From: Geminicoccus sp.
GTDB lineage: Bacteria > Pseudomonadota > Alphaproteobacteria > UBA7985
Length of the DNA stretch: 64,000 nt
Direction of reading: 5' to 3'
Assembly (NCBI GenBank): GCA_002708995.1
Contig: PAPT01000031.1
Coordinates: 7,902 to 71,901, forward strand
Shown: piece by piece, positions 16,552 to 56,549 of the stretch
Layout: each line of letters begins with the position of its first letter
How positions within the stretch are numbered: position 1 is the first letter of the stretch
The notes under the pieces: model-generated
The model's database searches: none
Seen by the model: the letters and a program-made list of their open reading frames with translations, nothing else
Told to the model about the DNA's origin: nothing
Translations under genes and position numbers: made by a program

Positions 16552-18153
16552 TCACAGGCCCGCGGCCTGGCCGTCCTTCCGCGGGTCTGAACCGGCCGAC
16601 AGAAAGCCGCTGTCCTGGTGCAGCCAGATGCCTTGACCGCCGCCGATCGGCTTCTCGGGGATTGCCAGCCGGTGGCCCCGGTCCAGCAGACCCTGACGCA
16701 GCAGTGGCGATAGCCCGGCTTCGGCCTGCACCCCGCCGGTCTTGGGCGAGGCGTGCACCCGCGGCTGGTCCAGCGCTGCCTGAATATCCAGCCCGAAGTC
16801 GAGCATGGCGGTCAGCACGTGCACCTGTCCCTGGGGCTGGTAGTCCGCCCCCATGACGCCGAAGGCCATCTGCACGTCATCGCCCTTGGTCAGCATGGCC
16901 GGAATAATGGTGTGCATGGGCCGCTTGCCTGGCCCGTAGGCGTTGGGGTGGCCGGGGTCATCGATGCGGAAGCTGCGGGCGCGGTTCTGGAACCAGATCC
17001 CCGACCCCGGCGCCACCAGCCCGGACCCGAAACTGTCGAAGACCGATGCGATCAGGCTGACCGCGTTGCGGTCGCCGTCGACCACGGCCAGGTAGACGGT
17101 GTCACCGCTGGCCGGATAGTCCGGGGTCGGCACGGGTGAGAGGCTGCGGTCGTCGCGGATGCGGGCCGCCTGCCGGTCCATGCGCGCGGGGTTGAGCACG
17201 TCCTCGACGCGGCACGGCATCGACGGCAGGTCGGCGAAGAAGGCCTCGCGGTCGGCGTAGGCGAGGTGCGCGGCCTCGATCTGCTGGTGGTAACGGTCGA
17301 GCCCGTCGACCGAGCCGGGCGTGCCCAGCCGGTCGAGGATCTGCAGCATCTCCAGCGCCACCAGCCCCTGACCGTTGGGCGGTATCTCCCACAGCCGGTG
17401 GCCGCGGTAGGCGGTGCTGATCGGGTCGACCCACGTGCTCCGGGTCGCGGCGAAATCCTCGGCGCTGTGCAGGCCACCGCCCGCGCGCAGCTTGGCCAGC
17501 ATGTCGTCCACGACCCAGCCGTCGTAGAAACCCGCCCGGCCCTTGGCCGCGATTTCCCCCAGCGTCCGCGCCAGCGCCGGGAACACCATCCGCTGGCCGA
17601 CACGGGGCAGGGCCCCGCCGGGCAGCAGCAGGGCGGCGGCGTCGGGATCGTTGGCCAGCAAATCCCGCTCCAGCCCCCAGTCGCTGCGCACCCGCGCGTG
17701 CACCGGAAAGCCAACCTCGGCATAGACCCGCCCCGGTTCGATCACCCGCGCCAGATCCCAGCTGCCGAAGCGTTCGTGCAGGGTGATAAGGCCATCCACG
17801 GCCCCGGGGACCGTCACTGCGTGCGGGTGCTGGCGGTCGACCTTGCTGGTCCCGGAGAAGGCGGCGCTGACCTGCTCCAGCGTCGCTGCTGCCGGTGCGC
17901 GGCCCGAGCCGTTGAGCCCGTAGACGGGCATTTTCCCACCCTCGGCGTAGAGCGCGAACATGTCCCCGCCCAGCCCCACGGACTGAGGCTCGACCACGCA
18001 CTGCACCAGACAGGCAGTCACGGCTGCATCCACGGCGTTACCGCCCTCGGCCAGCACCTGCAGCGCTGCCGATGTCGCAAGCGGATGAGACGTTGCAACC
18101 GCCCCCTTTTCCGCCATAACAGTAGACCGGCCGGGAAGCTCGAAACTGCGCAT
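16552..18153 (-). CDS. ggt: gamma-glutamyltransferase family protein
   Basis: ORF 16552..18354. ATG at 18153 (MRSFELPG...) is preceded by AAGGAG at -10; another ATG lies at 18117. GGT-family blocks AVDAAVTACLVQCVVEPQSVGLGGD and the nucleophile region HTIIPAM. No obvious signal peptide. Confidence 0.8.
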   Translation of the reverse strand: MRSFELPGRSTVMAEKGAVATSHPLATSAALQVLAEGGNAVDAAVTACLVQCVVEPQSVGLGGDMFALYAEGGKMPVYGLNGSGRAPAAATLEQVSAAFSGTSKVDRQHPHAVTVPGAVDGLITLHERFGSWDLARVIEPGRVYAEVGFPVHARVRSDWGLERDLLANDPDAAALLLPGGALPRVGQRMVFPALARTLGEIAAKGRAGFYDGWVVDDMLAKLRAGGGLHSAEDFAATRSTWVDPISTAYRGHRLWEIPPNGQGLVALEMLQILDRLGTPGSVDGLDRYHQQIEAAHLAYADREAFFADLPSMPCRVEDVLNPARMDRQAARIRDDRSLSPVPTPDYPASGDTVYLAVVDGDRNAVSLIASVFDSFGSGLVAPGSGIWFQNRARSFRIDDPGHPNAYGPGKRPMHTIIPAMLTKGDDVQMAFGVMGADYQPQGQVHVLTAMLDFGLDIQAALDQPRVHASPKTGGVQAEAGLSPLLRQGLLDRGHRLAIPEKPIGGGQGIWLHQDSGFLSAGSDPRKDGQAAGL

Positions 18154-18222
18154 GAACCTTACTCCTTGCGAGAATGCCAGCTCAAGCCGAGCCGACAGGA
18201 ACACGAGATCAAGGACGCTCCC

Positions 18223-20202
<1,980 letters not shown>

Positions 20203-21599: not shown

Positions 21600-22562
21600 G
21601 TGCCCCTGACCCCAGCCGTTTCCGCCATCATCGACAACTACGAAAGCGAAAACCCGGGCACGCGCTCCAAGCTGGTGCAGATGCTCAACCACGGCCGCCT
21701 GGGCGGCACCGGCAAGATGCTGATCTTGCCGGTGGATCAGGGCTTCGAGCACGGCCCGGCGCGGTCGTTTGCCCCGAACCCGGCGGGCTATGACCCGCTG
21801 TATCACTGGCAGCTGGCGATCGACGCTGGGCTGAGTGCCTTTGCAGCGCCGATCGGCCTGCTCTCCGCCGGGGCCGCGCACTTTGCCGGTCAGATCCCGC
21901 TGATCCTCAAGGTCAACAGCTCAAACAGCCACGCGCTCGCCGCCGATCAGGCGCTGACCGGCAGCGTGGAAGACGCTCTGCGGCTGGGCTGCGCGGGGGT
22001 CGGCTACACGCTCTATCCCGGCTCGGACCAGCAGTTCGACATGCAGGAAAAGCTGCGCCAGCTGACCAAGGATGCCCGCGACGCCGGGCTGGCCGTGGTG
22101 GTCTGGAGCTACCCGCGCGGCGGCGGCCTGAGCAAGCAGGGCGAAACCAGCCTCGATGTCATCGCCTACGCCGCCCACATCGCGGCGCTGATGGGCGCGC
22201 ATATCATCAAGGTCAAACCGCCCAAGCCCCAGATCGAGCAGGACGCTGCCCGGCCCCACTACGAGAACCGCGACTGGTCGCGGCTGGAAGACCGGATTGC
22301 TCACGTCATCCAGTCGGCCTTCGACGGCCGCCGCATCGTCATCTTCTCCGGCGGGGAAGCCAAGGGCACCGACGCGGTCTACGAGGAGATCGCGGCCATC
22401 GCCCGTGGCGGCGGCTACGGTTCCATCATCGGGCGCAACGCCTTCCAGCGCCCGCGCAAGGATGCACTGGACATGCTTGAACAGTTGATCGGCGTCTACG
22501 CCGAGCAGGCTGCCAGCGAAACGGCCATGCGCTCGGCCGCCAACGGATCCAGAGCCGCGTGA
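21600..22562 (+). CDS. class I fructose-bisphosphate aldolase (DhnA/FbaB type)
   Basis: GTG start with aaagga SD. ...GKMLILPVDQGFEHGP...HIIKVKPP... matches the archaeal/DhnA-type class I FBA with its Schiff-base lysine region. Its stop overlaps the glpX start. Confidence 0.8.
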   Translation: MPLTPAVSAIIDNYESENPGTRSKLVQMLNHGRLGGTGKMLILPVDQGFEHGPARSFAPNPAGYDPLYHWQLAIDAGLSAFAAPIGLLSAGAAHFAGQIPLILKVNSSNSHALAADQALTGSVEDALRLGCAGVGYTLYPGSDQQFDMQEKLRQLTKDARDAGLAVVVWSYPRGGGLSKQGETSLDVIAYAAHIAALMGAHIIKVKPPKPQIEQDAARPHYENRDWSRLEDRIAHVIQSAFDGRRIVIFSGGEAKGTDAVYEEIAAIARGGGYGSIIGRNAFQRPRKDALDMLEQLIGVYAEQAASETAMRSAANGSRAA

Positions 22563-23512
22563 CCACCGACAACAGCGTGAAGGCCCTGCTGCCCGACTTT
22601 GAACGCGCCTGCGCGCTGGCCGCACGGGCCTGCCTGCCGTGGGTCGGGCAGGGCGACAAGGAAGCCGCCGACGCCGCCGCCGTCGATGCCATGCGCACCG
22701 CCTTCAACGCTGCGCCCATGCACGGGCGCATCGTCATCGGCGAGGGCGAGCGCGATCAGGCGCCGATGCTCTATATCGGCGAGACCCTCGGCAATGGCCC
22801 CCGGTTGGCCTCGACGCCCGAGGTCGACATCGCCGTTGACCCGCTGGAGGGCACGACCCTGTGCGCGCAGAACCGACCGGGCGCGCTGTGCGTGGCGGCC
22901 TTTGCCCCGCGCGGTGAGCTGCTCCACGCGCCCGACGTCTACATGCAGAAGATTGCGGCCCGCCCGGGCCTCGACCTGCGCGATGACGATCTCGACCGGC
23001 CGCTCAATGAGGTTCTGGCCCGCTTGCAGGGGCAGGCCGGGCGACCCTTGCGGGTGATCATGCTCGACCGCGACCGCCACCGGCCGATGATGGCAGCGGT
23101 GCAGGCAGCGGGCGCGGCGCTGCGCCTGATCCCCGATGGCGATGTCATGGGCGCGCTGCTGACCGCGCTGCCCGGGGCGGTCGCCAGCAGCAGCCCGCGC
23201 TTCGATCTCTACGTGGGCAGCGGCGGGGCGCCAGAGGGCGTATTGGCGGCGGCAGGTTTGCAGGCGCTGGGCGGGAGCATGTTCGGACGGCTGATCTTCC
23301 GCGACGATGATGAGCGCGAGCGGGCGGCGCGGATCGGCCTTGAACCGGCAGAGCAGGGGCCGATTTTCGCGCTGTCCGGCCTCGCCTCCGGTCATGCTCA
23401 TCTGGTGCTGGCCGGGGTCACGGGTGACGTGCTCGACGGCGCGACCACCGCTGGGGCGCAGGTGCTGAGCCTCGGCGCCGGCGTGTGCAGGCTGCAGCAC
23501 TGCCGGTTCTGA
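22559..23512 (+). CDS. glpX: fructose-1,6-bisphosphatase class II
   Basis: GTG at 22559 overlaps the aldolase stop. ...GQGDKEAADAAAVDAMR...GRIVIGEGERDQAPMLYIGE...DIAVDPLEGTT...IPDGDVMGAL...GSGGAPEGVLAAAGL is collinear with GlpX. Confidence 0.85.
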   Translation: MTTDNSVKALLPDFERACALAARACLPWVGQGDKEAADAAAVDAMRTAFNAAPMHGRIVIGEGERDQAPMLYIGETLGNGPRLASTPEVDIAVDPLEGTTLCAQNRPGALCVAAFAPRGELLHAPDVYMQKIAARPGLDLRDDDLDRPLNEVLARLQGQAGRPLRVIMLDRDRHRPMMAAVQAAGAALRLIPDGDVMGALLTALPGAVASSSPRFDLYVGSGGAPEGVLAAAGLQALGGSMFGRLIFRDDDERERAARIGLEPAEQGPIFALSGLASGHAHLVLAGVTGDVLDGATTAGAQVLSLGAGVCRLQHCRF

Positions 23513-23571: not shown

Positions 23572-23601
23572 AAAAAGGGCGCCCGAGAGAGCGCCGTTTT
23601 G
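23572..23601. terminator. bidirectional intrinsic terminator
   Basis: aaaaa-GGGCGC-ccgagaga-GCGCC-gtttt. A/T runs flank the hairpin on both sides. It sits between the convergent glpX (+) and the secreted-protein gene (-). Confidence 0.6.
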
Positions 23602-23653
23602 CTTGTGTATTTTCCGGGTGATTGGCGGGCTGGGTTTCAGCCCGCCAGTTCGG

Positions 23654-24502
23654 TTAGCGGAAGATGTAAGTGTTGAAGCGGTCCGAGCGGCCGTCGGTGT
23701 AGACGGTGGTAACCTCGGCGATCAGCTTGTGACCGTAGCGCTTGAGAACCATGGTGCGGGTGGCAAAGCCCTGGTCCCACTTGGCCATAATCCGCTTGGC
23801 GGTGGTTGGGTGAGCGCCGACGCTGTCGGTCAGCGGAATGCCCTGGGTCCAGCCCCAGTTGCAGTCGTTGGGGTGGCAGGAGCCCCAGGCCTTGACCTTC
23901 ACGGCCGCACCATCGACTACAACGCGGATCTTGGTGACGCCACGGGTGTCGTCGTCGATGTTGATCCAAGCGCCTTCGAGCTGGTCGAGGTTGCTTTCAA
24001 CCGGCAGCAGGGGCAGCAAAGGCAGCAGCGGAAGGATTGGGTTAGGCTGGATGATCGGCGGGATGCTCACGGGCATCCGCTTCAGGGTGTAGCGGTAGAA
24101 GGTATCGGTGCGGCCGTCCTTGAAGTCGGTTGCGTTTTCGATGATCAGCTTGTCACCGTGCAGGTAGGCGCTGACCAGAGACGTGGCGTGGGACTTGTCG
24201 TAGCGCGCCATGACCCGCTCGGCGGACAGGGGCGAGGCGCTGACCGAAGAAGCCAGCGGCATGGCCGAGACTTCACCCCAGTCACAGTCGTTGGGGTGGC
24301 AGGCGCCCCAGGTGTTCAGGGTCGGGTGAGCACCCTCACCGCCGATCACCACTTTGGTGATGCCGCGGGTGCTGTCGTCGACGTTGATCCAGGCGCCGCG
24401 GAGGTCATCCAGACCGGCGTGGGCCGAGGTGGCGAGAAGCAGACCAGCAACGGCACCCGTTGCGGTCACAGAGATTTTTCTGAGCAGAGAAGCGATTTTC
24501 AT
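23654..24502 (-). CDS. secreted protein with an internally duplicated domain of unknown function (CHPNDC[DN]WG motif)
   Basis: ORF 23654..24622. ATG at 24502 is preceded by gagga at -9. Signal MKIASLLRKISVTATGAVAGLLLATSAHA. Two homologous modules of about 110 aa: GAWINVDDSTRGITKVV...WGACHPNDCDWG...RTDTFYRYTLKR and GAWINIDDDTRGVTKIR...WGSCHPNDCNWG...RSDRFNTYIFR. They are joined by a Pro/Leu repeat linker, IPPIIQPNPILPLLPLLPLLP. Confidence 0.6.
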   Translation of the reverse strand: MKIASLLRKISVTATGAVAGLLLATSAHAGLDDLRGAWINVDDSTRGITKVVIGGEGAHPTLNTWGACHPNDCDWGEVSAMPLASSVSASPLSAERVMARYDKSHATSLVSAYLHGDKLIIENATDFKDGRTDTFYRYTLKRMPVSIPPIIQPNPILPLLPLLPLLPVESNLDQLEGAWINIDDDTRGVTKIRVVVDGAAVKVKAWGSCHPNDCNWGWTQGIPLTDSVGAHPTTAKRIMAKWDQGFATRTMVLKRYGHKLIAEVTTVYTDGRSDRFNTYIFR

Positions 24503-24672
24503 GATTTGATCCTCAGAGAGACGTTTGAACGGGGCGGGAAGGTCGTTTCCCGTGGTTGACGCAGACCGGTGTAGGCCCGTTCTGTTGCGCGCGTTTCTCG
24601 GATCGCTTTCAGTTATCGCCATTGGTGAAACAGTGAGTGTGGCAGTGTTTCAGAAGGTTTCTGCCAGAGGGT

Positions 24673-24722
24673 AAAACCCAGACAAAAGGGGCTGGAGCAG
24701 TCTTTCAAGCTGCCACAGCCCC
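24673..24722 (-). terminator. intrinsic terminator of the 2OG oxygenase gene
   Basis: Minus strand reads GGGGCTG-(loop)-CAGCCCC followed by TTTTGTCTGGGTTTT. It lies immediately 3' of the gene ending at 24777. Confidence 0.5.
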
Positions 24723-24776: not shown

Positions 24777-25616
24777 TCAGCCCCCCCGCAGCTGGCGCAG
24801 ACGCTCCTGCAGGTACGAATCTGCCGTGTAGCGCTCGGACAGCACGACCTCGGGCCGTGGGTGGCAGAACAGCGGCAGGCTGATCCGGCCGATGGTCTTA
24901 TCTGCGCCTTCCGGGTTCACCACGCGGTGGGTGGTCGAGGGGAAGTACCCGCCCGAGGCTTCCTGCAGCATGTCGCCGATGTTGACGATCAGGTTGCCGA
25001 AGTCACAGGGCACTTCCAGCCAGGAGCCGTCCTTGGCCAGCACCTGCAGCCCCGGCTCGTTGGAGGCCGGCAGGATGGTGATCAGGTTGATGTCTTCGTG
25101 CGCTGCAGCACGGATCGCCGCGGGCTCTTCGTCGCCGGTCAGCGGCGGGTAGTGCAGGATGCGCAGCAGGTGCTTGGGGCTGCCCTCGATCATTGTCGAG
25201 AGGGGTTCGCTGTACAGCGTCGTCACGTCCTCGGGGGACTCGTCCTCGATCCATTGCAGCAGCTCGGCGGCGAGGTCGGTCGCCCGCTGGTGGTAGGCCT
25301 GCGCCTTGGGCAGCAGGTCGTCAGGGCAGACATCGCCGGGGTAGTAGTGGAAGAACTCCTTGATGTCTTTGATGGTGTTGCCCTTGGCCGTCTCGGACAG
25401 CGACTGCGGGTAGAACCCGCCCGCACCATTGTGGGGGACGGCGTAGTCGTTCTTGCGCTCCTCGCTGAAAAACTGACGCCAGTCGTCATAGATTTCCTGC
25501 ACTTGGTCCTGTCGCAGGGGGTGGTTCTTCAGCACGCCGAAACCGGTATCCCGGAGCGAGCGGACAAAGTCCTGCTTTGCGGTCAGGCTGGTGTAGTCAA
25601 CGGCAACGAGTTCCAT
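24777..25616 (-). CDS. 2-oxoglutarate/Fe(II)-dependent oxygenase (isopenicillin N synthase-like)
   Basis: 279 aa. HxD...H facial triad candidates (HEDINLITIL ... HRV) and the 2OG-oxygenase jelly-roll pattern. Divergent from the polyamine cluster. Confidence 0.7.
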   Translation of the reverse strand: MELVAVDYTSLTAKQDFVRSLRDTGFGVLKNHPLRQDQVQEIYDDWRQFFSEERKNDYAVPHNGAGGFYPQSLSETAKGNTIKDIKEFFHYYPGDVCPDDLLPKAQAYHQRATDLAAELLQWIEDESPEDVTTLYSEPLSTMIEGSPKHLLRILHYPPLTGDEEPAAIRAAAHEDINLITILPASNEPGLQVLAKDGSWLEVPCDFGNLIVNIGDMLQEASGGYFPSTTHRVVNPEGADKTIGRISLPLFCHPRPEVVLSERYTADSYLQERLRQLRGG

Positions 25617-25825: not shown

Positions 25826-27214
25826 ATGTTCTCTCTGGGCAACCTTCCGACCACCGATGAAATGATTGCAGCCGATCTCGGCAGCCACATGCATCCCTTC
25901 ACCGATCACGACGCGCTGGGTCCGGGTGACCTGCGGGTGATCACTTCAGCTGAGGGCGTGTTCATCAACGACAGCAACGGCGGACAGATCCTCGACGGGA
26001 TGGCCGGCCTGTGGTGTGTCAACATCGGCTATGGCCGGCAGGAAATCGGGGAGGCCGTCAGCCGCCAGATCGCCCAGCTGCCCTACTACAACACCTTCTT
26101 CAAGACCACGCACCCGCCGGTGATCGTGCTGTCGGAGAAGCTGGCCCAGCTCACCCCCGACGGGATCGAGAAGTTCATGTTCGGCACCTCGGGTTCGGAC
26201 AGCAACGACACGGTGATCCGCCTGGCGCGGACCTACTGGGCCGGGCGCGGCAAGCCTGACAAGACGATCATCATTTCGCGCAAGAACGCCTATCACGGCT
26301 CGTCGATGGCCGCGGCCAGCCTCGGGGGCATGCAGTTCATGCACGCCCAAGGCGGCCTGCCCATTCCCGATATTCACCACATCGGCCAGCCGTACTGGTT
26401 CGACGAAGGCGGCGACATGGACCCCGATGCCTTTGGCCTGATGCGCGCGCGCGAGCTCGAGCAGGCCATCGACCAGCTCAGCGAAGACCGGGTCGCGGCC
26501 TTTATCGCTGAGCCGATTCAGGGCGCGGGCGGGGTCATCATTCCGCCGGGCAGCTACTGGCCTGAAGTGCGCCGCATCTGTGAGGAGCGCGATATTCTGT
26601 TCGTCGCCGACGAAGTGATCTGTGGCTTCGGCCGGCTGGGCACGTGGTTCGGCTCGCAGCGGCTGGACCTGCACCCGGATATGATTGCCATGGCCAAGGG
26701 CCTGACCAGTGGCTATCTGCCCATGGGCGGGGTCGGGCTGACCAATGAGGTCTACGAGGGCGTCAGTCAGGACGGCGAGTTCGCCCACGGCTACACCTAT
26801 GCCGGTCACCCGGTCAGCGCAGCGGCGGCCATCGCCAATCTTGAAATCATGGAGCGCGAGGGTCTGGTTGACCGCGTTGGCTACCACACCAAGCACGTGT
26901 TTGCGGAGAAGTTCGCCGCGCTGGGCGACCACCCGCTGGTGGGGGAGGCCGCGACCTTCGGCCTGCTCGGCAAGCTGGAACTCGTCCCCGATGCGGCCAG
27001 CGGGTCGCGGCGGCGGTTCGAGAACAGCGGCGAGGTCGGTGGCATCTGCCGTGATTTCTGCTTCCGCAACAATCTGGTGATGCGGGCGGTGCGGGACTCC
27101 ATGGTCTGCAGCCCGCCGCTGCCGATTGCGGATGATGAAATCGACCTGCTCGTCGAGCGCGCATGGGCAGCGCTGGATCAGACGGCCGCCGCGGTTGCGG
27201 ACAAGATGGCCTGA
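25826..27214 (+). CDS. spuC: class III aminotransferase, putrescine-pyruvate aminotransferase SpuC-like
   Basis: 462 aa. ...AGLWCVNIGYGR...HPPV...FGTSGSDSNDT...AEPIQGAGGVI...FVADEVICGFGR...KGLTSGYLPMGGV... is collinear with omega-aminotransferases of the SpuC type. Confidence 0.8.
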   Translation: MFSLGNLPTTDEMIAADLGSHMHPFTDHDALGPGDLRVITSAEGVFINDSNGGQILDGMAGLWCVNIGYGRQEIGEAVSRQIAQLPYYNTFFKTTHPPVIVLSEKLAQLTPDGIEKFMFGTSGSDSNDTVIRLARTYWAGRGKPDKTIIISRKNAYHGSSMAAASLGGMQFMHAQGGLPIPDIHHIGQPYWFDEGGDMDPDAFGLMRARELEQAIDQLSEDRVAAFIAEPIQGAGGVIIPPGSYWPEVRRICEERDILFVADEVICGFGRLGTWFGSQRLDLHPDMIAMAKGLTSGYLPMGGVGLTNEVYEGVSQDGEFAHGYTYAGHPVSAAAAIANLEIMEREGLVDRVGYHTKHVFAEKFAALGDHPLVGEAATFGLLGKLELVPDAASGSRRRFENSGEVGGICRDFCFRNNLVMRAVRDSMVCSPPLPIADDEIDLLVERAWAALDQTAAAVADKMA

Positions 27215-27226
27215 GGACCGTGCATC

Positions 27227-28633
27227 ATGAACGATCTGCCACAGAGTCTTGAACCTGAAATCACTCTAGAAGAGTCCCCCGATCTCGTATCGGGGCGGAT
27301 GAGCGAGCTGCGCAAATGGGCGCGCGAGAAGGGCGTTGAGGAAATCGAGTGTCATACGCCCGATTTCGCCGGTATCGCGCGCGGCAAGGTCATGCCGGCG
27401 GAGAAGTGGTTCGGCGGGGTCGAAACCCGCCTACCGACCTCCGTGTTCTTTTCGACCATCACCGGGTCCTACGCCGACAGCCCGCACCGCGAGCTGTGGT
27501 CTGATGCGGATATGATCCTCAAGCCCGACCTGCGCACGGCGAGTTCGCTGCCCTGGGCGACGGTGCCGTCGATCCAGGTGATCCACGACGTGCTCGATCT
27601 GGACGGCAAGCCGATCGACTTTGCCCCGCGCTCGGTCCTGCGCCGCGTACTCAAGAGCTTTGAGAAGCTGGGCTGGAAGCCGGTCGTCGCGCCGGAGCTC
27701 GAGTTCTACCTGACTAAGCCGAACACCGACCCCGACCTGCCACTGGAACCGCCGCAGGGACGCTCGGGCCGGACACAGCGCAGCAATCAGGCGTTTTCCA
27801 TGCAGGGGATCGACGAGTACGAGAGCGTCACTGACCATATCTACGACTTTGCCGCCGCGCAGGGGGTCGAGATCGACACCATTATCCAGGAATTCGGCCC
27901 CGCCCAGCTCGAGGTCAACCTCGTTCACGGTGATGCGATGGAGAAGGCCGACGAGGTCTTCATCTTCAAGCGCACGGTGCGGGAGGCGGCGCTGCGCTGC
28001 GGGTGCTACGCAACCTTCATGGCCAAGCCGATCGAGGGCCACGCGGGCAACGCCATGCACATCCACCAGTCGGTGGTCGATATCGACAGCGGGGAGAACA
28101 TCTTCAGCGACGCCAAGGGTGAGCCGACCGACCTGTTCCGCTGGTTCATCGGTGGGCAGCAGAAGTACTCCTACGCCACCTCCGCGCTGTGGGCGCCCTA
28201 CGTCAACTCCTACCGGCGGCTGGTCCCGGACATGTCTGCGCCGATCAACCTCGAATGGGGCTATGATAACCGCACCACGGGGCTGCGGGTGCCGCGCTCG
28301 GGGCCGAAGAACCGCCGGGTGGAAAACCGCCTGATCGGGGCCGATACCAACCCCTATATCGCCATCGCCGGTTCGCTGGCCGCGGGCCTGCTGGGGATCA
28401 GCAACAAGGTCGAGCCGCGCGAACCGGTGACCGGAAACGGCTTTGCTGGCGGCCGGGCGCTGCCTTACTCGCTGCTCGAAGGGATCGAGGCCTTCGCCGC
28501 CAGCGAAGAGCTGGCCGAGGTGCTGGGCCAGCAGTTCGTCGACATGTACACGGCGCTGAAGTTCGAGGAATACGACGCCTTTATGCAGGTGATCAGCCCG
28601 TGGGAGCGCCAGCACCTCCTGCTCAACGTGTAG
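27227..28633 (+). CDS. glutamine synthetase family protein, gamma-glutamylpolyamine synthetase (PauA/PuuA-like)
   Basis: 468 aa. GS catalytic-domain blocks (ELEFYL, FMAKP..GHAGNAMHIHQS, NRTTGLRVP) without an adenylylation loop. Sits between the aminotransferase and the FAD oxidase, as in pau/puu clusters. Confidence 0.8.
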   Translation: MNDLPQSLEPEITLEESPDLVSGRMSELRKWAREKGVEEIECHTPDFAGIARGKVMPAEKWFGGVETRLPTSVFFSTITGSYADSPHRELWSDADMILKPDLRTASSLPWATVPSIQVIHDVLDLDGKPIDFAPRSVLRRVLKSFEKLGWKPVVAPELEFYLTKPNTDPDLPLEPPQGRSGRTQRSNQAFSMQGIDEYESVTDHIYDFAAAQGVEIDTIIQEFGPAQLEVNLVHGDAMEKADEVFIFKRTVREAALRCGCYATFMAKPIEGHAGNAMHIHQSVVDIDSGENIFSDAKGEPTDLFRWFIGGQQKYSYATSALWAPYVNSYRRLVPDMSAPINLEWGYDNRTTGLRVPRSGPKNRRVENRLIGADTNPYIAIAGSLAAGLLGISNKVEPREPVTGNGFAGGRALPYSLLEGIEAFAASEELAEVLGQQFVDMYTALKFEEYDAFMQVISPWERQHLLLNV

Positions 28634-28664
28634 CGCGCGCTGGTGTGAAACGGCAGCCAGCGAC

Positions 28665-29999
28665 GTGAGCCAGAACAGCCTTCTTCACCTCAACGACCGG
28701 GTGGGGGCCTTCCCCCCGTCCTACTACGCTGCGACGGCGAAGAACGTGGTCGAGCGCCCGCGGCTTAGCGGCATCGAGGACGCCGATGTCTGCATCATCG
28801 GCGGCGGCTTCACCGGCCTGAGCGCGGCTTTACACTGCGCGCGGCAGGGGCGGTCGGTGGTGGTCCTCGACGCCCACCGCGCGGGCTGGGGCGCCTCCGG
28901 GCGCAACGGCGGACAGGTCGGGGCGGGCCAGCGCATCGATCAGGACAGCCTCGAAGCGCTGGTCGGGGTGGATCATGCCCACGAGGCCTTCCGCATCGGG
29001 GTCGAGGCCCCGGCGCTGCTGCGCGCGCTGATCGACGAACACGCCATACCCGCGGACTACAAGCCGGGGCTGCTGCACACCAACCACCGCGCACGCTACG
29101 ACGCTGAGTCCCGAGACTATGCGGCCAAGCTGCAGGACGAATACGGCTACGACCAGATCCGCTTCGTCGAGCGCGAGGAAATGTTGGAGATGCTCGGCGC
29201 GGCGGATGCTTTCGGCGGCACGCTTGATACCGGCGGCGGGCATGTTCACCCACTGAATTTCGCGCTTGGGCTGGCCCGGGCCGCCGAGGCCGCCGGCGCG
29301 CGCATTTTTGACCGGGCAGAGGTTGCCACCGTCGGCCCCGGTGACCCGCACGAGGTCCGGCTGCGCGGCCCTGTTGCTGGAGGCGGGACCGAAACCGGTG
29401 TGCGGGCCAAAGTCGTGCTCTACGCCTGCAACGGCTATCTGAGCGGGCTGGAGCCGCGGACCTCGGCCCGGGTGATGCCGATTAACTCCTTCGTCGTCGC
29501 CACCGAGCCGCTGAGCGAGGAGCGCTGTGGGTCGCTGATCCGCGACGATGTTGCGGTCGCCGACAGCCGCTTTGTAGTCAACTACTACCGGCTGAGCGCC
29601 GACCGCCGGATGCTGTTTGGCGGCGGTGAGACCTATGGCTATCGCTTCCCGCGCGACATCCGGGCGTTCGTCCGGCGCCCGATGCTGGAGGTCTTTCCCC
29701 AGCTTGCCGACGTCGCGCTGGACTACGGCTGGGGCGGCACGCTCGGCATCACCATGAAGCGTCTGCCCGACTATGCTGAGCTGGGACCGAACCTCTATAG
29801 CCTGTCGGGCTATTCGGGGTCCGGGGTCGCCATGGCGACCAAATCGGGGCAGATTTTCGCCGACATGCTCGACGGCGACGACCGCGATTTCCGCGTCATG
29901 CAGGGCCTGCCAACCCCGGTTTTCCCCGGGTCCGGGCGCTGGCGTCAGCCACTGCTGATTGCGGCCATGAGCTGGTACGCGCTGCGAGACCGGTTTTAG
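28665..29999 (+). CDS. FAD-dependent oxidoreductase, gamma-glutamylputrescine oxidase (PuuB/PauB-like)
   Basis: 444 aa. N-terminal dinucleotide-binding fold CIIGGGFTGLSAALHCA. DAO-family layout. Position matches pau/puu clusters. Confidence 0.75.
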   Translation: MSQNSLLHLNDRVGAFPPSYYAATAKNVVERPRLSGIEDADVCIIGGGFTGLSAALHCARQGRSVVVLDAHRAGWGASGRNGGQVGAGQRIDQDSLEALVGVDHAHEAFRIGVEAPALLRALIDEHAIPADYKPGLLHTNHRARYDAESRDYAAKLQDEYGYDQIRFVEREEMLEMLGAADAFGGTLDTGGGHVHPLNFALGLARAAEAAGARIFDRAEVATVGPGDPHEVRLRGPVAGGGTETGVRAKVVLYACNGYLSGLEPRTSARVMPINSFVVATEPLSEERCGSLIRDDVAVADSRFVVNYYRLSADRRMLFGGGETYGYRFPRDIRAFVRRPMLEVFPQLADVALDYGWGGTLGITMKRLPDYAELGPNLYSLSGYSGSGVAMATKSGQIFADMLDGDDRDFRVMQGLPTPVFPGSGRWRQPLLIAAMSWYALRDRF

Positions 30000-41930: not shown

Positions 41931-42007
41931 TGGTCGGGGCAGCAAGATTCGAACTTGCGACCCCCTGTACCCAAAACAGGTGCGCTACCAGGCTGCGCCA
42001 TGCCCCG
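41931..42007 (-). tRNA. tRNA-Pro (anticodon UGG)
   Basis: The reverse complement folds as a cloverleaf: acceptor CGGGGCA/TGCCCCG, D-arm GCGC-AGCCTGGTA-GCGC, anticodon arm CCTGT-TTTGGGT-ACAGG (anticodon TGG), T-arm GCAAG-TTCGAAT-CTTGC, 3' ACCA encoded. Confidence 0.85.
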
Positions 42008-56473: not shown

Positions 56474-56549
56474 TGGTGGGCGATGACAGGCTCGAACTGC
56501 CGACCCTCTCGGTGTAAACGAGATGCTCTACCAACTGAGCTAATCGCCC
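56474..56549 (-). tRNA. tRNA-Val (anticodon UAC)
   Basis: Reverse complement GGGCGATTAGCTCAGTTGGTAGAGCATCTCGTTTACACCGAGAGGGTCGGCAGTTCGAGCCTGTCATCGCCCACCA. Acceptor 7 bp, D-arm, anticodon loop TTTACAC (TAC), T-loop TTCGAGC, CCA encoded. Confidence 0.85.

Follow-up and report, generated by a model that had tools for sequence, protein, structure and literature searches.

Lipocalins, fatty acid-binding proteins (FABPs) and avidins are built on calycin-type β-barrels. In a barrel of sequential (+1) strands, loops A-B, C-D, E-F and G-H share one end, the 'open' end of lipocalins, and in lipocalins and avidins this is the end that binds ligand. In calycins, the structurally conserved region (SCR) 1 consists of a 3-10 or other short helix and the strand A that follows it, centred on G-x-W; SCR3 is a basic residue of strand H, stacking on the Trp of SCR1 (PMC5040251). 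SCR2 is commonly missing in bacterial lipocalins, and a metalloprotease inhibitor family is also counted in the group (PMC5040251). Here we describe a gene in a 64,000-nucleotide stretch of DNA from Geminicoccus sp. (assembly GCA_002708995.1, contig PAPT01000031.1, positions 7,902 to 71,901), hereafter the window. The gene lies at window positions 23654-24502 on the minus strand and encodes 282 codons plus a stop. We read its product as a Sec-exported, bivalent binding protein made of two calycin-like barrels, each stapled by a disulfide and each carrying a polar/aromatic open-end site for a putative ligand, and we give this reading a probability of about 0.55.

The protein is organised as a signal peptide followed by two related modules. 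The Sec signal peptide (residues 1-29; 24416..24502, minus strand) has a K/R n-region, a hydrophobic core and A-x-A at residues 27-29. It reads MKIASLLRKISVTATGAVAGLLLATSAHA, the predicted signal peptidase I cut falling after A-H-A (Ala29) and before G. A27 and A29 are invariant across 11 orthologs, which bears out the clean signal peptide noted in a preliminary description of the gene made from the letters of the window alone. The signal peptide contains no lipobox Cys, and it scores below 50 in predicted local distance difference test (pLDDT) in the full-length AlphaFold2 model. The exported protein is most likely periplasmic. When hydrophobicity was judged strictly, 152 of 190 family members had an N-terminal hydrophobic segment ahead of the first module; many of the other 38 are borderline or truncated.

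Module 1 (residues 30-143; 24074..24415, minus strand) and module 2 (residues 171-282; 23657..23992, minus strand) are 47% identical over these spans (BLASTP E 3e-40), a similarity far above chance. The preliminary description had proposed two homologous modules of about 110 residues, in agreement with the ~112 residues found for each, and the module motifs it quoted were all present where it placed them: GAWINVD begins at residue 36 and GAWINID at residue 177. Every conserved motif of the family is retained in both modules. In a comparison across modules, 1 and 2 are 46% identical to each other, compared with 34-39% identity to any single-module relative, and orthologous modules are 56-85% identical. 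This ranking places the duplication inside this alphaproteobacterial lineage, before its radiation. The modules are joined by a Pro/Leu-rich linker (residues 144-170; 23993..24073, minus strand) of sequence PVSIPPIIQPNPILPLLPLLPLLPVES, containing PPIIQPNPILPLLPLLPLLP. Its LPLLPLLPL core, the Pro/Leu repeat reported earlier, is encoded by a 9-bp unit present in 2.9 copies at 24003-24028, and the linker differs in length and sequence among orthologs.

The module went unrecognised in profile searches, as the preliminary description had anticipated. A 2025 copy of Pfam gave no match at E<=10 for the full protein. When 116 family members were searched at E<=1, only scattered chance matches were obtained, and of the 25 Pfam families matched most often, out of 41, none was of calycin, inhibitor or avidin type. 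NCBIfam (2026) returned noise only (GCG_CRPN, E 0.2 over 9 residues). No relative was found among PDB sequences, either with the single protein or with the family profile at E<=10, and a match to the Kelch-like designed protein 8pjw (E 0.12) was discarded as noise. PADLOC gave no match for the window protein, and relatives fused to TIR domains match it through the TIR part only. All names carried by family members, including RefSeq entries of cultured strains, are 'hypothetical protein', and full-text literature searches found no paper on the family.

To place the fold, we ran AlphaFold2 on module 1 from the 116-sequence alignment. The resulting model (pLDDT 97.1, predicted template modelling score (pTM) 0.87) consists of a short helix at module residues 2-5 followed by eight sequential strands A-H, the first at residues 7-11, connected mostly by tight turns of 2-7 residues. 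All 50 matches listed in a Foldseek search of the PDB are calycin-type barrels (lipocalins, FABPs and avidins) of ~10% identity. The best template modelling (TM) scores among them are those of 1bbp (0.63), 1epa (0.61) and 1n0s (0.59); FABPs reach ~0.52, and the avidins 4ggr and 6hds score ~0.5-0.55 normalised by either chain length. No match to the PDB reached E<=1e-3, the best having E 2.6e-3, and Foldseek against BFVD gave weak barrel matches only. Thus no confident match to a characterised domain emerged, by sequence or by structure. The eight sequential +1 strands and TM scores of up to 0.63 nonetheless predict a calycin-like eight-stranded β-barrel, with closure of the barrel read from model topology. 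The architecture is then not new, and the fold, left unplaced in the preliminary description, can be placed.

The predicted barrel shares several calycin hallmarks. The helix at 2-5 runs into strand 7-11 as in SCR1, with G7 conserved in 99% and W9 in 97% of the 116 sequences, and position 113, the last of strand H, is R or K in 88%, a candidate SCR3 residue that would stack on W9. The F-G loop, the expected place of SCR2, is a variable two-residue turn (1.61 bits), unlike the SCR2 of kernel lipocalins. The closest described proteins are perhaps the bacterial outlier lipocalins, such as Treponema pallidum Tp0751 and E. coli Blc. Like them, the module is exported and predicted to form an eight-stranded +1 antiparallel barrel, with an N-terminal helix leading into a G-x-W strand A, a basic residue ending strand H, no SCR2, and the open-end loops L1/L3/L5/L7 as its predicted functional end. 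It differs from lipocalins in being ~112 rather than 160-180 residues long, in stopping directly after strand H with no packed C-terminal helix, and in having no match to the lipocalin profiles of Pfam (Lipocalin, Lipocalin_2-9 and related families). Its polar L1/L7 motifs, its tandem occurrence and a predicted disulfide-stapled L3 hairpin, specific to the family, set it further apart. FABPs share the calycin barrel; they are cytosolic and have ten strands and a helix-turn-helix lid (FABP4 and relatives), whereas the module has eight strands, a 7-residue A-B loop without helix, no lid, and is exported.

Avidins resemble the module in other respects. Bradavidin2 (4ggr) and short afifavidin (6hds) belong to the same size class (106-128 residues), are secreted, have eight strands and no flanking helix, and begin with a G-x-W-x-N strand. 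In avidins, the Asn of this strand contacts biotin. These likenesses, and the ligand-binding lipocalins, FABPs and bacterial avidins that make up the best structural matches, bear on a second explanation, in which the protein would resemble the classical carriers of lipocalin or avidin type: each barrel would enclose a small molecule (hydrophobic, or a vitamin or cofactor such as biotin), and the protein would scavenge or sequester it in the periplasm at two sites. The G-x-W-x-N strand indeed pairs with the streptavidin/avidin strand in hhalign, and N11 is 89% conserved. Against this, hhalign gave probabilities of 0.9% for streptavidin and 0.6% for avidin, and that strand alone aligns. Nothing is alignable past strand 1, the biotin-contact residues could not be located in the alignment, and there is no Pfam match to avidin (PF01382) or lipocalin. 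Avidin family membership, which the GxWxN strand had prompted us to consider, was rejected on the hhalign probability of <1%. Avidins also form dimers or tetramers of single domains, in contrast to the tethered tandem here. The small module, with its short loops and no lipocalin C-terminal helix, and the conservation of polar loop residues instead of a hydrophobic cavity lining make a buried-ligand carrier unlikely in our view. We prefer to regard the module as a new sequence family, outside any named one, whose predicted barrel is calycin-like and of outlier-lipocalin or avidin size.

The full-length AlphaFold2 model indicates how the two barrels are arranged. Both have pLDDT ~90, and module 2 repeats the helix and eight strands of module 1 (pLDDT 82-95). 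The linker falls below 50 at residues 145-167 and is predicted to be disordered; pTM is 0.48. The model thus predicts two independent barrels on a flexible tether. A pseudo-dimer with a shared Cys-lined pocket, which the preliminary description had suggested looking for by structure prediction, was discarded on the basis of the low pTM and the disordered linker.

The C-D hairpin of the module carries a Cys pair. The motif is WGACHPNDCDWG in module 1 (residues 65-76; 24275..24310, minus strand), with a predicted disulfide Cys68-Cys73, and WGSCHPNDCNWG in module 2 (residues 206-217; 23852..23887, minus strand), with a predicted disulfide Cys209-Cys214. Both Cys are present in 116/116 aligned sequences and the Pro between them in 115/116. 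The His of CHPNDC is conserved in only 61% of the family and is replaced by Ser or Thr in 8/10 two-module orthologous clusters, and relatives show the variants CSPTDC, CSPSDC and CHPTPC. Of the motif first described as invariant, the two Cys, the Pro and the flanking WG pairs therefore stand, while the His and the N/D positions do not.

In the single-module model, residues 38-43 form the loop after strand C, and Cys44 is the first residue of strand D, so that the Cys pair brackets the turn of the C-D β-hairpin. The preliminary description had left the choice between a disulfide and a metal site. A structural disulfide staple is most likely, because the His is poorly conserved, the pair has hairpin-turn geometry, and the modules of some distant signal-less members lack the pair altogether; a metal site is unlikely. 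In a stronger form of the latter idea, CxxxxC and a nearby His/Asp would form a metal or redox centre, making the protein a periplasmic metallochaperone or a thiol-disulfide oxidoreductase. Invariance of the Cys pair in 116 sequences and the His and Asp that flank it in the window protein would suit such a centre. The spacing is, however, CxxxxC on a β-hairpin, not the thioredoxin-like CxxC at a helix N-terminus; the His varies as above; the distant members without the pair keep the other motifs; and neither Pfam nor NCBIfam gave a match to a thioredoxin or metallochaperone family. We consider a metal or redox centre very improbable.

To locate a possible functional surface, family conservation was mapped onto the secondary structure of the model as mean information content per region. 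The four open-end loops scored above the strands (A-B 2.71 bits, C-D 3.20, E-F 2.24, G-H 3.06; strands 1.94), and the loops at the closed end scored below them (B-C 1.50, D-E 1.21, F-G 1.61). Open-end loops together average 2.87 bits, more than the closed-end loops with 1.30 (Mann-Whitney p 1.9e-5) and more than the strands (p 3e-4). The conserved open-end residues are N11, D13, T16, R17, G18, P41, D43, D45, W46, F76, D100, G101 and R102, which by composition are polar or aromatic, not lipophilic.

We therefore favour the following scheme for the two-barrel binding protein. After cleavage of the signal peptide, probably behind Ala29, each module would fold alone into an eight-stranded up-and-down barrel of calycin (lipocalin/avidin) type, and C-x-P-x-x-C would form a structural disulfide across the C-D turn in the oxidising periplasm. 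Three open-end motifs would jointly make a polar/aromatic recognition site: loop A-B carries N-x-D-x-x-T-R-G, loop C-D carries W-G-x-C-x-P-x-D-C-D-W-G and loop G-H carries F-T-D-(x-S)-G-R. The flexible Pro/Leu tether would hold the barrels ~25 residues apart, and the two could each hold a copy of one ligand or together hold a repetitive one. The Asn, Asp, Thr, Arg and Trp residues of the loops argue for a polar small molecule, a glycan or an envelope or protein epitope as ligand, and not for a lipid.

Several points weigh against this scheme. Around the C-D hairpin, hydrophobic alternation does not clearly tell inward from outward residues. The clustering of the loops, the presence of a pocket, the distance between the two Cys and the stacking of Trp and Arg are derived from predicted topology together with sequence, and the conserved polar loops could equally form a Ca2+ site or a structural site. 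Kinship to calycins is at fold level only (Foldseek E at least 2.6e-3, ~10% identity, no profile match). Finally, a few members, for example P0077 and P0082, have no signal peptide, which implies that the domain is not strictly extracytoplasmic.

The signal-less minority includes P0047, P0057, P0070, P0077, P0082, P0171, P0203 and P0237. P0057 and P0082 have a common N-terminal segment, xEF[RK]TPxDM[IL], and another is shared by P0171, P0203 and P0237, two-module proteins in whose modules the Cys pair is replaced. These members may represent a cytoplasmic subfamily. A correlation between Cys pair and export signal was considered and abandoned, as the hydrophobicity test is too noisy and signal-less members mostly retain the pair.

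The extent of the family was determined in several ways. Searches with the whole protein found ten two-module clusters only (49-97% identity), all from marine metagenomes or alphaproteobacterial metagenome-assembled genomes (MAGs), plus three single-module proteins. A single-module profile (A2) recovered 181 clusters in a word-indexed database and, in an exhaustive search, 2266 representative clusters (50% identity) at E<=1e-3, 1135 of them at E<=1e-10. When one genome of each GTDB species was scanned with one motif pattern, 488 loci were confirmed in many bacterial phyla and in Methanothrix. They occur in Alphaproteobacteria, Chlorobium/Chlorobaculum, Acidobacteriaceae, Saprospiraceae, Flavobacteriaceae, Desulfobacterales, Spirochaetales, Trueperaceae and many Methanothrix MAGs; the spread at higher rank thus takes in Alphaproteobacteria, Chlorobiota, Acidobacteriota, Bacteroidota, Desulfobacterota, Spirochaetota and the archaeon Methanothrix. 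Naming the module would annotate thousands of 'hypothetical' exported proteins, and defining it would supply them with a predicted fold, the calycin-like barrel whose L3 loop is stapled by a disulfide and whose open-end loops form a conserved cluster. The fold is known; the family, the stapled C-D hairpin, the conserved loop cluster and the architectures described below have not been described.

Other proteins carry one to three copies of the domain, and two or three copies are present in 42 of the best 150 family representatives. Some members have simple membrane anchors. Others are fused to CARDB, dockerin, PASTA, Laminin_G_3, TSP3 or FGE-sulfatase domains, or to peptidases (M43/Reprolysin_5, Trypsin_2, Peptidase_C1 and transglutaminase-like). 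For the M43 and transglutaminase-like members, those with reported positions, the domain is C-terminal of the catalytic domain. This fusion pattern points to a portable extracytoplasmic recognition module, one that binds and is not itself an enzyme.

The peptidase fusions bear on a further explanation, that the protein inhibits a periplasmic hydrolase (a lysozyme, a peptidoglycan amidase or a protease) in the manner of MliC/PliC, Inh (I38) or Omp19. The stapled C-D hairpin would enter the enzyme cleft, and the two modules would block two enzyme molecules. Location, size and barrel type agree with this, and the calycin group counts a metalloprotease inhibitor family (PMC5040251). A conserved, constrained and protruding hairpin is typical of inhibitors, and fusions to M43/Reprolysin_5, Trypsin_2, Peptidase_C1 and transglutaminase-like proteins would fit. 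The known inhibitors are likewise small exported barrels, and they act through conserved loops instead of a cavity, as predicted for the module; the gene stands alone, as mliC/pliC genes do. The families are nonetheless unlike the module in sequence: no MliC/PliC or Inh family is among the Pfam matches listed for 116 members, and none of these families is among the 50 Foldseek matches listed (their signature loops were not searched for). A place C-terminal of the catalytic domain, as in the two peptidase fusions of reported position, is moreover one for binding modules and not usually for inhibitory prodomains, and most fusions are to non-enzymatic surface domains and TIR. Inhibition of a hydrolase is accordingly a minor candidate, and we favour the binding module.

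One architecture deserves separate mention. An N-terminal TIR domain, one transmembrane segment and a C-terminal barrel domain make up 6 of 86 long members (P0159, P0191, P0195, P0202, P0206 and P0258), with the barrel predicted to lie outside the cytoplasm. This arrangement resembles a receptor layout. Recurrence of the domain in TIR-transmembrane and surface proteins makes it a candidate module for environmental or envelope recognition. A bolder proposal, which we advance as speculation with rather poor odds, is that the domain is the ligand-sensing ectodomain of an unrecognised class of prokaryotic receptors, and that free tandem forms such as the window protein capture, buffer or present the same ligand. 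If so, the TIR-transmembrane proteins would relay a signal from outside the cytoplasm to a TIR effector within it, Toll-like-receptor-like with reversed order, and a new ligand-receptor module would be common to many bacterial phyla and Methanothrix. A TIR gene that adjoins the single-module member at locus L010 was set aside as coincidence, since its product has no barrel domain.

Many single-module members carry a C-terminal extension of two ~60-residue repeats with the pattern EDC-x-x-FNP...G-x-WKIVDG...C-F-V-G-R-P-x-P. Among them are P0270 (Chlorobaculum sp. 24CR, L048 3932-4852), P0274 (Spongiivirga, L045), L018, P0180, P0192, P0197, P0214 and P0256. Pfam matched the extension in none of the 8 traceable listed members and gave one or two weak DUF7044 matches family-wide; it looks like a second unannotated domain. 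A different recurrent, Cys-rich C-terminal extension of ~90 residues (VDCYHCCESNKWC ... GRWRVWA ... GWW-F-Y), found in L084 (a Methanothrix MAG) and P0156, also had no Pfam match.

Returning to the window, the gene is real and under purifying selection, as indicated by ten orthologous clusters and by dN/dS of 0.16, 0.08 and 0.12 against orthologs of 98%, 97% and 81% protein identity. At the DNA level, an 'Alphaproteobacteria bacterium' MAG matches the window with 95.6% identity and a 'Rhodospirillaceae bacterium' MAG with 91%. An alternative upstream ATG at 24622 would extend the same open reading frame (ORF), but an MK[ILF] start matching 24502 is present in 10/10 full-length orthologous clusters. 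The Shine-Dalgarno sequence GAGGA (24510..24514, minus strand), read from the sequence, lies 7 nt 5' of ATG 24502, in line with the earlier claim that the gene has one of its own, and the stop codon is at 23654..23656 (minus strand). The GC content of the gene resembles that of flanking DNA. A mobile-element or viral origin was rejected, given no tblastn match in plasmid and phage collections, only weak barrels in BFVD, and GC near that of the flanks.

The gene indeed sits between glpX (22559-23512, plus strand) and a 2-oxoglutarate (2OG)-Fe(II) oxygenase gene (24777-25616, minus strand), as first described, with a DeoC-type aldolase gene on the glpX side. Two hairpins, at 23623-23647 and 23578-23595, follow the stop codon (23578..23647; joint fold -45.2 kcal/mol, z -8.1). 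The hairpin at 23578-23595 has T-runs on both strands and could be a bidirectional terminator shared with glpX. On the other side, a terminator-like hairpin (24688-24722 plus UUUUGU; 24684..24722, minus strand; -28.9 kcal/mol, z -4.5) follows the oxygenase gene; a simple terminator scan overlooked it owing to its bulged stem. This hairpin would insulate the barrel-protein gene. Terminator-like hairpins on both sides support, at pattern level, the earlier reading of a monocistronic gene with a bidirectional terminator; on the other hand, no sigma-70-like promoter was detected for the gene. A riboswitch or small RNA in the 274-bp upstream spacer was also considered and rejected, the spacer having no Rfam match at E<=1.

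Even at 49% identity, two-module orthologs still adjoin glpX, DeoC and FMN_dh. Among single-module relatives no neighbour recurs from one lineage to another, and clustering of all ORFs from 80 loci gave neighbour families that are lineage-restricted only, none being shared across phyla. No operon partner emerges, and the lack of a shared family speaks against one that is obligate, for instance a toxin or an effector. A functional link to glpX, DeoC, FMN_dh, the 2OG oxygenase or the puu-like genes described below was rejected: because terminator-like hairpins bracket the gene and single-module relatives have no shared neighbours, the conserved order is taken as lineage synteny only. For the window gene itself the significance is thus modest, that of a stand-alone protein of a marine alphaproteobacterium, probably periplasmic and of binding type, with no demonstrable link to adjacent metabolic genes. 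In distant two-module relatives, a Glu_synthase-domain gene (489 residues) lies between the oxygenase and barrel genes (L005 6358-7827, L006 1232-2701); this insertion is absent from the window and from an 81%-identical relative.

Three adjacent genes, for a class-III aminotransferase, a Gln-synt_C glutamine-synthetase-like protein and a DAO-type FAD oxidoreductase, occupy window positions 25826-29999 (plus strand) and beyond. Arginase and GATase genes come next in close relatives. The set looks like a gamma-glutamylation (puu-like) cluster for polyamine or amine catabolism, and it is syntenic in all two-module-carrying relatives. Elsewhere in the window, tRNA genes at 41934-42007 and 56477-56549 (minus strand) are the sole Rfam matches at gathering score. 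An ORF at 17266-20202 (plus strand) encodes an AMP-binding enzyme of 978 residues when read from GTG, whereas its ortholog in relatives has 659 residues; since the Pfam domain does not begin until residue 418, translation probably starts far downstream of this GTG.

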